Shown here: positions 10,762-12,527 of the stretch, one piece after another
Layout of the letters: the number at the start of each line of letters is the position of its first letter
Position numbering within the stretch: the first letter of the stretch is position 1
Origin: Candidatus Velamenicoccus archaeovorus
GTDB lineage: Bacteria; Omnitrophota; Gorgyraeia; Velamenicoccales; Velamenicoccaceae
Length of the DNA: 32,000 bases
Reading direction: 5' to 3'
NCBI RefSeq assembly: GCF_004102945.1
Contig: NZ_CP019384.1
Coordinates: 450,001 to 482,000, forward strand
Translations under genes and position numbers: made by a program
Notes under the pieces: model-generated
The model's input: only the letters and a program-made list of their open reading frames with translations
What the model was told of the DNA's origin: nothing
Database searches by the model: none

Positions 10762-12188
10762 AAAAAGAACCGGTCAAGATCAAAGAGAGGGACAAGCTTT
10801 CCAGGGCCAGGGATTTTGAAGAGGTCGTCCTCGGGTTTTCCGAAGGAGAGGCCCTGGAGGAGGCGTCGCGCTGTCTCCAATGCAAAGACCCCAAATGTAT
10901 TGCCGGCTGTCCTGTCGGGATAGACATCAAGGCTTTTATCGGCCAATTGACGAAAAAAGATTATGACGGGGCTTATGCGACGATCCGTCAGAAGAGCAAT
11001 TTTCCCTCCATATGCGGCAGGGTGTGTCCTGCCGAATACCAGTGCCGCAAGGCATGTGTCTTTACCAAAAAAGGCGAGCCCTTTGCGTCCCAGCAGGCTA
11101 TCAATATCCATTTTTTAGAAAGGTTTATCGGCGACCACGGCGCCAAAAAAGGCCTTCACCTCAAGGCATCCGGTGGCTCCAAATATAAAGGGGTGAAAGT
11201 GGCAGTGGTCGGTTCGGGCCCGGCCGGGCTTTGCTGCGCGGGCGAACTGGCGCGCCAGGGCATCAAGGTCGTTATTTTTGAGGGGCTGCACAAGACGGGC
11301 GGCGTCCTGCGTTACGGCATTCCGCCTTTCCGTCTTCCCAGGAAGATCCTCGACTCGGAGATCAATTCTTTAAAAGAACTCGGCGTTGAGATCCACTTGA
11401 ATACTATCATCGGCAAGGCCAAGACGATCGACGAGCTTTTCGGCGAGGGTTTTTCCGCCATATTCCTCGGCCTGGGAGCCGGGATCCCGTCGTTCTTGGG
11501 TGTCCCCGGGGAAAACCTCTGCAATGTCTATTCCGCCAATGAATTTTTGACCAGGGTCAATTTGATGAATGCGCATTTGTTCCCTGTCAGCCACACCCCG
11601 ATCAATATCGGCAGACATATCGTTGTGATCGGCGGCGGCAATACGGCGATGGACGCGGCGCGCGTCGCGATCAGACTGCAGCATTTGGCGGGGGTCCCGC
11701 CCGACACGACTATTTGCTACCGGCGCACGGAAGTCGAGATGCCGGCGCGCAGGCTTGAAATTGAACATGCCAAAGAAGAAGGCGTCAAATTCGATTTCCT
11801 GGTCAAGCCGGAAGAATTTTCAGGTGATGAAAAGGGGTTCGTCGGAAAGATGTGCTCCAGCCGCTGCGAGCTCGGAGAGCCGGATAGCTCCGGAAGGCGC
11901 AGGCCTGTGGTTATTCCTGACAGCCATTTCGAGGTGGATTGCGATCTGGCCGTCATTGCAGTCGGGTTGGGCGCCAACAAGATCCTGACCAGCGTGACGC
12001 CTCAGTTGAAAACCGATAAATACGGCGACGTCACCGTGGATCCCCAGACCATGGAGACGTCCATCAAGGGTGTTTTTGCCGGCGGAGATATCGTAGGAGG
12101 AGAGGGGACTGTGATCGAGGCCATGGGCATGGCCAAGAAGGCGGCCAGCGCTATCCTTGATTACCTGGACAGGAAATCCAAAGATTGA
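10758..12188 (+). CDS. GltD-family NADPH-dependent oxidoreductase, NfnB/SudA-type (glutamate synthase small-chain-like)
   Basis: N-terminal Fe-S motifs CLQCKDPKCIAGCPVGIDI and CGRVCP. Two Rossmann motifs, VAVVGSGPAGL and VVIGGGNTAMD. 476 aa. Confidence 0.85.
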   Translation: MKKEPVKIKERDKLSRARDFEEVVLGFSEGEALEEASRCLQCKDPKCIAGCPVGIDIKAFIGQLTKKDYDGAYATIRQKSNFPSICGRVCPAEYQCRKACVFTKKGEPFASQQAINIHFLERFIGDHGAKKGLHLKASGGSKYKGVKVAVVGSGPAGLCCAGELARQGIKVVIFEGLHKTGGVLRYGIPPFRLPRKILDSEINSLKELGVEIHLNTIIGKAKTIDELFGEGFSAIFLGLGAGIPSFLGVPGENLCNVYSANEFLTRVNLMNAHLFPVSHTPINIGRHIVVIGGGNTAMDAARVAIRLQHLAGVPPDTTICYRRTEVEMPARRLEIEHAKEEGVKFDFLVKPEEFSGDEKGFVGKMCSSRCELGEPDSSGRRRPVVIPDSHFEVDCDLAVIAVGLGANKILTSVTPQLKTDKYGDVTVDPQTMETSIKGVFAGGDIVGGEGTVIEAMGMAKKAASAILDYLDRKSKD

Positions 12189-12527
12189 TTTGTAAGGAAT
12201 AGGAACTCTATTATAGGCAACATCAAGGAATAAGCGTTACCCTTGCGTCTAATCACTTGGAAATTTTCGCCAGGGTAGGCCGTCGGCCTGGCGTAGCCGG
12301 CCAGGATGGCCATCCGGCAAAAATTTCCTGCGTAGCCGCAGGGTTAATTTTGCAAGGAATAGGAACTCTATTATAGGCAAAATTAAGGAAATAAACGTTA
12401 CTCCTTGCGTAACCATCTTGACAATTTATGTCTGCGGCCAGCCTTCACAGAGTTCAGGCGGGCAGCCATAAATTCTCAAGATACGCTTCGGAGTTAATCT
12501 CGCCAGAGGCGAGATTAAGGAGGAGAC
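12186..12527 (+). repeat. Structured repeat array: partial U 3' half (12186-12236), U module (12237-12397), U module (12398-12523)
   Basis: 12237-12397 is nearly identical to 8330-8490. The first P2 arm overlaps the TGA of the upstream gene. The last unit ends in AAGGAGG, 4 nt before the gdhA ATG. Confidence 0.8.

Follow-up and report, generated by a model that had tools for sequence, protein, structure and literature searches.

BIME/REP, BOX, ERIC and Correia elements are found mainly 3' of genes, in both orientations, and are not known to supply the Shine-Dalgarno sequence (SD) of the next gene; their modules occur in nested or mosaic combinations, REP affects mRNA stability, and Correia elements are processed by RNase III. 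The intercistronic RNase III hairpins of phage T7 are long and interrupted, contain an internal loop, and are placed just 5' of the next ribosome-binding site. MIRU (mycobacterial interspersed repetitive units) vary in copy number between strains. As reviewed in PMC3184786 after Supply et al. (1997), these elements of 40-100 bp reside in the intercistronic regions of operons, where they are co-transcribed and can be tandemly repeated, with ends that run into the stop and start codons of the flanking genes; they hold small open reading frames (ORFs) that couple translation, and empty and filled sites are found among relatives. Neisseria REP2, to which the Borrelia IR sequences are similar, lies directly 5' of ORFs and contains a ribosome-binding site and two predicted RNA stem-loops, as well as a promoter and an ATG, and marks a co-regulated gene set (PMC3184786). 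BIME/REP, BOX, ERIC and Correia are abundant hairpin-forming intergenic repeats that are co-transcribed with their neighbours, and ERIC can change mRNA stability via RNase E (PMC3184786). Here, we analyse a stretch of 32,000 nucleotides from Candidatus Velamenicoccus archaeovorus (contig NZ_CP019384.1, positions 450,001 to 482,000; hereafter the window), in which one repeat forms three arrays. We argue that array B, between a GltA/SudA-like gene and gdhA, probably represents a lineage-restricted intercistronic repeat of Candidatus Omnitrophota, modular and transcribed, that was inserted there recently. Our literature searches found no description of this Omnitrophota repeat family.

The array between gltA and gdhA

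The repeat unit measures about 115-160 nt and consists of a long interrupted hairpin (P0-P1) followed by an AU-rich hairpin (P2) and then AAGGA. All three arrays in the window lie on the + strand, and each runs up to the start codon of a + strand gene. The features of the junction, with scores from our covariance model of the unit, R1, are the following, in window positions:

10758..12188, + strand: GltA/SudA-like NADPH-dependent glutamate synthase, 476 aa (NCBIfam TIGR01316 gltA, E = 2e-153)
12185..12527, + strand: array B, at the junction of the GltA/SudA-like gene and gdhA, with modules B0, B1 and B2
12185..12236, + strand: B0, P2-only head module (nhmmer match to positions 96-142 of the unit hidden Markov model; hairpin in the minimum-free-energy fold)
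12237..12397, + strand: B1, full unit with P0, P1, P2 (12344-12352 / 12378-12386) and SD-like AAGGAA at 12385-12390 (R1, 104 bits)
12271..12317, + strand: palindromic, GC-rich insert nested in the P1 tip of B1, and present as well in A1, a unit of array A, at 8365-8411
12398..12527, + strand: B2, terminal unit of a second subfamily (predicted fold: P1 long and paired throughout, P2 short, at 12494-12504 / 12508-12518)
12528..13865, + strand: gdhA, NADP-specific glutamate dehydrogenase, 445 aa (NCBIfam PRK09414, E = 1e-232)

In five relatives whose GltA is 80-95% identical, the gltA-gdhA junction measures 13-15 nt and has its own SD, versus 339 nt in the window. The empty site of the closest relative (comparison contig L169) reads ...aaatcagcaTAAcaaaggagtcgggcATG, and the filled site reads ...aaatccaaagatTGAtttgtaagg[array]aaggaggagacATG, with a downstream edge that can also be read as attaaggaggagacATG. 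Because the five relatives keep the same two genes 13-15 nt apart, array B appears to have been inserted recently, in place of the native stop codon and SD. The comparison of the empty L169 site with the filled one reveals no target-site duplication; rather, about 21 nt comprising the native stop, SD and spacer have been replaced.

This replacement is visible in the protein, in which the C-terminus DRKSA* of the relatives without an array has become DRKSKD*, the last two codons of the GltA-like gene and its TGA stop (12186-12188) being element-derived sequence. The initial annotation had noted that the array opens with only the 3' half of a unit, and a P2-only module does indeed come first, its 5' arm TTGATTTG (12185-12192) holding the TGA of the GltA-like gene; the 3' arm CAACATCAA (12218-12226), an SD-like AAGGAA (12225-12230) and the linker TAAGCG complete B0. 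Two origins had been offered for this overlap, namely that the element landed on or supplied the gene end, or that the gene end decayed into it, and by the empty-site comparison and the changed C-terminus the first holds, the element having supplied the gene end. Arrays often open with a P2-only module, and an upstream stop inside P2 occurs at four more loci in three independent contexts (seen in L135, L138/L160 and L157), making the overlap at array B a recurrent arrangement. At the other end, B2 carries the SD AAGGAGG at 12517-12523, followed by a 4-nt spacer to gdhA, and thereby supplies the gdhA ribosome-binding site.

A second junction, between carB and a guaA-like gene, holds array A in the window and gives a further series of states among relatives:

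8224..8753, + strand: array A, which follows the carB stop (8221-8223) and precedes the ATG (8754) of a GMP-synthase-C-like gene; found with R1 and compared between strains
carB/guaA-like junction in L179: 14 nt, empty
carB/guaA-like junction in L178 (carB 96% nucleotide identity): 56 nt, with leader hairpin, short P2 and SD
carB/guaA-like junction in L166: 282 nt, with P2-only module, B2-like unit and A1-like unit
carB/guaA-like junction in the window: 530 nt, with leader hairpin, T-module, short P2, A1, A2 and A3

In array A, the leader hairpin is followed by the T-module (8247-8292), the short P2 (8295-8311), and the units A1 (8330-8490), A2 (8491-8615) and A3 (8616-8753). Because L178 and the window share the terminal context ATCAAGGAGGG...ATG, the series suggests that arrays grow by recombination at shared P2-arm/SD sequence. 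The recent copying proposed in the initial annotation is not expected to leave identical arrays in related strains, and what we find, in its favour, is that arrays differ between strains and that five relatives have an empty gltA-gdhA junction.

Near-identity of two units and gene conversion

The claim of a near-identical copy 4 kb away is borne out, A1 (8330-8490) and B1 (12237-12397) differing at 4 of 162 aligned columns (97.5% identity), and the match does take in the GC-rich insert at the P1 tip (12271-12317). The two copies are distinguished by a 1-nt indel near the 5' end (TTACTCC versus TTAC-CC) and by one C/T change (8402 versus 12307), both of which had been listed before; the "divergent last dozen bases" that had been added to them do not stand, as the tails differ at two positions only, through a 1-nt indel and one G/A change (AAGG-AATAAGCG versus AAGGAAATAAACG).

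The sister assembly L001 (GCA_041890195.1; contig JBEEQD010071226.1, 2952 nt, with position 1 inside B1) matches window positions 12261-15208. Over 137 nt, B1 and its L001 orthologue show 7 differences, compared with 16 differences in the remaining 2811 nt (0.6% in the flanks) and with 3 differences between A1 and B1 over the same 137 nt. In addition, A1 and B1 share the variants GCGTAG and AACTCTATTATAGG, which are missing from both orthologues. Since the paralogues are closer to each other than the orthologues are, gene conversion is indicated, with a tract that spans essentially one whole unit; it may have run from A1 to B1, or both may derive from a third copy. These counts, in a family that is diverse and spread over Omnitrophota contigs, agree with the earlier proposal of recent copying within an old family. 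Separately, the repeat evidently breaks short-read assemblies of these genomes.

The neighbouring unit B2 scores only 24 bits with R1, and it had been described as highly diverged with both stems kept. The stems are there, as a long P1 hairpin and a short P2 in the predicted fold; what did not survive is the notion of an old resident. B2 differs from the L001 copy at 1 of 130 positions and from a unit in L166 at 11 positions in 130 nt, and its subfamily has members in L166, L124, L144, L147 and L142, with compensatory changes in P1 recognised by eye. The whole array is young at this locus, and B2, which comes from a separate subfamily with close members elsewhere, is not an old resident decayed in place.

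Fold of the unit

We derived a consensus fold from an alignment of 24 units. On the sense strand, P0-P1 comprises P0a (CUCC/GGAG), P0b, P1a and the nearly invariant P1b (GAAAAUUU/AAAUUUUC), and ends in a variable P1 tip that accepts nested GC-rich inserts; the insert is also present in units of L007, L137, L166, L141 and L125, whereas elsewhere the tip is short, at about 14 nt (CCAGGGTAGGCCGG). Directly 3' of this hairpin lies P2 (UUAAUUUUG...CAAAAUUAA), with the conserved loop GYAAGGAA..ACCY..UAUAGG, and then AAGGAG. Compensatory changes occur in 20 of the 33 predicted pairs, prominent among them 8/98 (UA 12, CG 9), 15/90 (UA 12, CG 11), 21/88 (GC 12, AU 11) and 102/140 (AU 11, GC 9, CG 4). 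Paired cells reach 95.1%, versus 86.3% in shuffles and 37-54% in slid registers, and none of 500 shuffles attained the observed values. An all-against-all covariation scan of 66 distinct sequences returned known helices as its top five pairs and most of its top ten, the rest being noise-like pairs of U/G-rich columns, and gave nothing convincing for a pseudoknot beyond the known helices.

The excess of G-U cells (38 versus 11 A-C cells; pairing 95.1% sense, 91.7% antisense) moderately favours the sense strand as the folded one. Folding energies do not separate the strands (z = -7.2 sense, -8.5 antisense). A switch in which a 5' anti-SD, CUCCUU, would pair with AAGGAG was rejected: CUCC becomes CCCC in 9 of the 24 units, where GGGG in the P0 3' strand compensates and the SD stays AAGGAG. 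Because P0 covaries while the SD is fixed, selection acts on P0 and not on sequestration of the SD. Between the two ends of the unit, TTACTCCTT ... AAGGAATAA, 8 of 9 positions are complementary, and the same bases form the P0 strand and the SD, such that function explains the complementarity as well as the terminal inverted repeats of a MITE would. Stop codons fall in all three frames in 41 of 50 units.

A further palindrome, the T-module (TAACCCAGAAAGGGTAGGCC...GGAGGGCC), has 26 copies, which usually stand either between P2 and the P0 3' strand or directly after a further T-module. This module and the tip insert make the family a mosaic of nested palindromic modules. On the minus strand at window positions 28870-29046, between two + strand genes and thus in the opposite orientation, a T-module copy (TAACCCACAAGGGGTAGACC...GGAAGGGTC) stands with a short hairpin and a large palindrome rich in GC. 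L141 shares this T-module and the short hairpin with the stretch, in which the modules of the set seem to be combined into another composite.

Distribution and gene context

The core pattern occurs six times in the window against none expected, and the unit is found in three window arrays and 69 times in 358 kb of related, element-bearing contigs (R1), so a chance origin is excluded. Within the window, R1 detects only the three arrays, the third of which is as follows:

25396..25652, + strand: array C, 5' of an unannotated 228-aa ORF (ATG 25653), found with R1

It comprises T-modules at 25396-25441 and 25442-25487, a short P2 and the unit C1 (25526-25652). Exact-protein look-ups of the genes downstream of arrays A and C gave no match.

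Rfam 15 returned no match at the gathering threshold for the whole window, and in E-value mode only chance-level matches for positions 8200-8780 (icd-II at 20 bits, threshold 99; SAM-V at 19.6 bits, threshold 41). A specific P2 pattern yielded 49 metagenome stretches, and a looser pattern run on genome contigs yielded 118 mostly chance matches, from which just three genuine ones emerged (L007, L014 and L099), one with the label Candidatus Omnitrophica. Homologues of the GltA-like and GMP-synthase-like proteins of the window are likewise named Omnitrophica or Omnitrophota. R1 has no match in the 133 kb that make up the related contigs L169-L181, so the family is patchily distributed among close relatives. 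Viral carriage was rejected on the basis of 0 matches among IMG/VR viral contigs.

Of the 69 R1 matches, 52 were scored with an ORF behind them, two or three of these being doubtful, and in about 50 of the 52 AAGGAG(G) is followed, after 5-11 nt, by the start of an ORF that is 45 aa or longer, all co-oriented. The remaining matches are mostly internal units that end in AAGGAAUAAGCG and run into the next unit. No unit inverted relative to its downstream gene was seen among the R1 matches. A full unit in L160 (3744-3875) and L138 (381-512), in which the SD is mutated to AATGAG or AATGAA and no ORF start lies behind, may be a decaying copy or serve a different use.

Upstream genes were called by a crude longest-ORF prediction, which gave a co-directional gene in 36 of 51 scorable arrays, often 2-15 nt away, and a "divergent" one in 15, several of which are spurious antisense ORFs. 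The usual place of the element is thus the gap that separates neighbouring operon genes, as at trmD-rplS, at dxr-rseP, and between an upstream ORF and lgt, names that were recognised by eye where Pfam confirmation is not given. The genes downstream are diverse housekeeping genes: Pfam and NCBIfam identify EF-Ts and the ribosomal proteins S6, S11, S14, S18, L19, L25 and L35 for translation, and otherwise YajC, chorismate synthase, Lgt, an M50 protease (RseP-like), BioY, 2-oxoacid:ferredoxin oxidoreductase subunits and glutamate dehydrogenase; for SecDF and type III glutamine synthetase, the identification was by eye alone.

Proposed mechanism

At intercistronic junctions, the element is a folded, polar cassette that opens with a stop codon and closes with an SD. 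In an array, the last unit bears a canonical SD, AAGGAG(G), 5-11 nt before the start of the next gene, and the AU-rich array head, with UAA or UGA in the P2 arm, can end the upstream gene. Such a self-contained "stop - hairpins - SD" cassette can replace the native 13-15-nt junction with neither gene inactivated. The cassette would be co-transcribed with its operon, and on the mRNA its hairpins might act as barriers or processing sites that set segmental stability; with the SD kept unpaired, it might also act as an insulator that uncouples the two cistrons. Arrays would grow, shrink and homogenise through recombination at the short P2-arm/SD sequences and between whole units, including the conversion that would have made B1 a near-copy of A1, 3.9 kb away.

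Several points weigh against this proposal. P1b and the P2 loop are nearly invariant beyond what a hairpin needs, which the cassette model leaves unexplained and which could mark the binding of a protein. Co-transcription and any effect on stability or translation are inferred. Neither a transposase, nor a target-site duplication, nor defined ends were found, in searches that covered genome fragments only. The metagenome sample was collected with a P2-derived pattern, leaving variants that lack the long P2 loop under-sampled, and any truly divergent upstream genes would call for a promoter, none having been identified.

An extension of the proposal, which we regard as rather improbable, is that the cassette is a domesticated mobile "translation-initiation module" whose P1b helix and P2 loop would be recognised by an Omnitrophota protein or by the ribosome. 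If true, ribosomal-protein, secretion and nitrogen-assimilation genes would be joined in a single post-transcriptional circuit as the repeat spreads, giving a regulon built by a mobile RNA element and not by promoter evolution.

Alternative explanations

The strong conservation of unpaired positions and of the P1b helix would also suit a cis-regulatory leader for a trans-acting factor, either an RNA-binding protein, e.g. CsrA-like, or a small ligand, with spread being secondary. Such a leader would define a post-transcriptional regulon of housekeeping genes, with CsrA-like use of the GGA in the P2 loop and of the SD; two GGA motifs do lie about 30 nt apart in these places, and many ribosomal-protein and translation genes stand downstream. 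However, terminal units with a short P2 (loop AGA or GGA, lacking the conserved sequence) precede genes too, gdhA included, so the conserved loop is dispensable. Moreover, the downstream genes have no common pathway, close relatives have these operons with an element-free junction of 13-15 nt, conservation is equal in internal units that no gene follows, and no Rfam family matches. We consider a regulatory leader unlikely.

The neighbours carB, gltA, gdhA and the GMP-synthase-like gene had also brought a nitrogen riboswitch or an ANTAR target into consideration, a candidate that was rejected because Rfam is negative and the same unit precedes ribosomal-protein, yajC, lgt and M50-protease (RseP-like) genes. 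The window has no GAF-ANTAR gene, and in its arrays we saw no double hairpin of the ANTAR type. In the related Omnitrophota contig L176, two GAF-ANTAR regulator genes (2513-3232 and 11025-11792) flank the glutamine synthetase and gltA-gdhA genes.

A second alternative, and a quite doubtful one, holds that the element acts as DNA, either through single-stranded hairpins used by a Y1 transposase (REP/RAYT-like or IS200/IS605-like) or as a promoter or operator as in Neisseria REP2. The patchy distribution, the fast turnover of arrays between strains, the imperfectly inverted unit termini (TTACTCCTT ... AAGGAATAA) and the many units that begin with TTAC or TTGAC are all compatible with action as DNA, yet strict co-orientation and a fixed register to the start codon are unexpected for single-stranded transposition alone, the filled site lacks a target duplication, and viral contigs have no matches. 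For a promoter, two candidates are available, both with poor spacing and a poor -10: TTGYAA-N13-16-TATAGG in P2, whose -35 (TTGYAA) and -10 (TATAGG) would drive the downstream gene, and TTGAC(C/T)-16-GAGAAT/GAAAAT at some unit 5' ends, a weak sigma-70-like match (TTGACC-16-GAGAAT, 9/12). The P2 promoter is unlikely, given its spacer of only 13-16 nt and the G at position -7 of its "-10", whereas the same genome has canonical TTGACA-17-TAACAT and TATAAT matches; a promoter at the unit 5' end would leave P0 and P1 out of the RNA, yet both covary.

Units acting as tandem attenuators are very unlikely. Here, a local hairpin (e.g. CCUGCG-UAGC-CGCAGG) together with UUAAUUUUG would terminate transcription unless P0-P1 formed as an antiterminator, placing transcript 3' ends at UUAAUUUU. 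A terminator scan does flag this hairpin with a U-rich tail in A1, A2, A3 and B1, and the local hairpin is mutually exclusive with P0 and P1a. It was nonetheless rejected as a terminator for its lack of covariation support (75% paired versus 75.2% in shuffles; 17 of 24 sequences have a mismatch at its centre), whereas P0 and P1 are strongly supported and the element also lies inside ribosomal-protein operons.

Finally, although assemblers do break at the repeat, the sister contig starting inside B1, it is scarcely credible that the near-identity of A1 and B1 is an assembly artefact (a collapsed repeat or a chimeric join), given that the copies retain 4 differences and unlike flanks, that B1-B2-gdhA is seen again in an independent assembly, and that the gltA-gdhA adjacency agrees with the synteny of five relatives.

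Significance

With the insertion of an intercistronic cassette as our favoured explanation, a small repeat is able to settle in the narrowest gaps that a compact genome offers, namely operon junctions of 13-15 nt, because it brings its own stop codon and ribosome-binding site. Two loci offer a dated series of states, from empty sites through a minimal 56-nt cassette to multi-unit arrays, with conversion ongoing. The repeat explains contig breaks and shifted gene ends in the assembly and annotation of Omnitrophota metagenomes. Its three-helix fold is well supported and occurs at about one copy per 5-10 kb in the sampled element-bearing contigs, and its function is open to experiment; the element might serve as a natural cistron insulator.

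Other repeats in the window

A 126-nt repeat occurs at window positions 4353-4478 and 9736-9861, with copies 93% identical and a further copy in L178 (1854-1979). It combines a promoter match (TTGACA-N17-TAACAT), about 90 nt and a terminator (GACGTCC...GGGACGTC followed by a T-run), and looks like a duplicated small-RNA gene; it has no Rfam match. A 58-nt repeat (3016-3073 and 4748-4805, 88% identical) contains a promoter-like TTGTTT-N17-TATAAT, from which the organism appears to use ordinary sigma-70 boxes. Between the NlpC/P60 gene and carB, about 840 nt (4180-5016) hold no convincing gene, their sole ORF (4506-4976, minus strand) having no family match, and may be decayed sequence.

Comparison with known systems

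The "stop - hairpins - SD" repeat is most likely analogous to MIRU, Neisseria REP2, BOX and BIME. Like MIRU, the Omnitrophota unit is intercistronic, lying between co-directional operon genes in the orientation of the genes, and its arrays vary in length between strains and have empty and filled sites. Unlike MIRU with their small ORF, most Omnitrophota units are stopped in all frames (41/50) and have no coupling ORF; they are, in addition, three-helix RNA folds of 115-160 nt with their own SD, and the two families share no sequence relationship.

The resemblance to REP2 lies in the ribosome-binding site, the position directly 5' of ORFs and the two stem-loops. In contrast to REP2, no convincing promoter was found in the Omnitrophota unit, its ATG belongs to the gene, and its units stand in tandem arrays inside operons, with unrelated housekeeping genes downstream.

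With BIME/REP, BOX, ERIC and Correia, the element has in common that it is modular and mosaic. REP are palindromes of 20-40 nt that are headed by GTAG and alternate in orientation, whereas the Omnitrophota units are direct repeats with strict polarity: they have no conserved GTAG head, measure 115-160 nt, and form direct repeats on one strand in every array. The hairpin also recalls the T7 RNase III sites in its intercistronic placement and interrupted form, cleavage being conjectural here; the T7 sites are neither mobile nor array-forming, whereas the Omnitrophota repeat forms arrays. Taken together, the repeat constitutes a new family within an already known class of intergenic repeats in bacteria, one that has no sequence kin among the elements compared.

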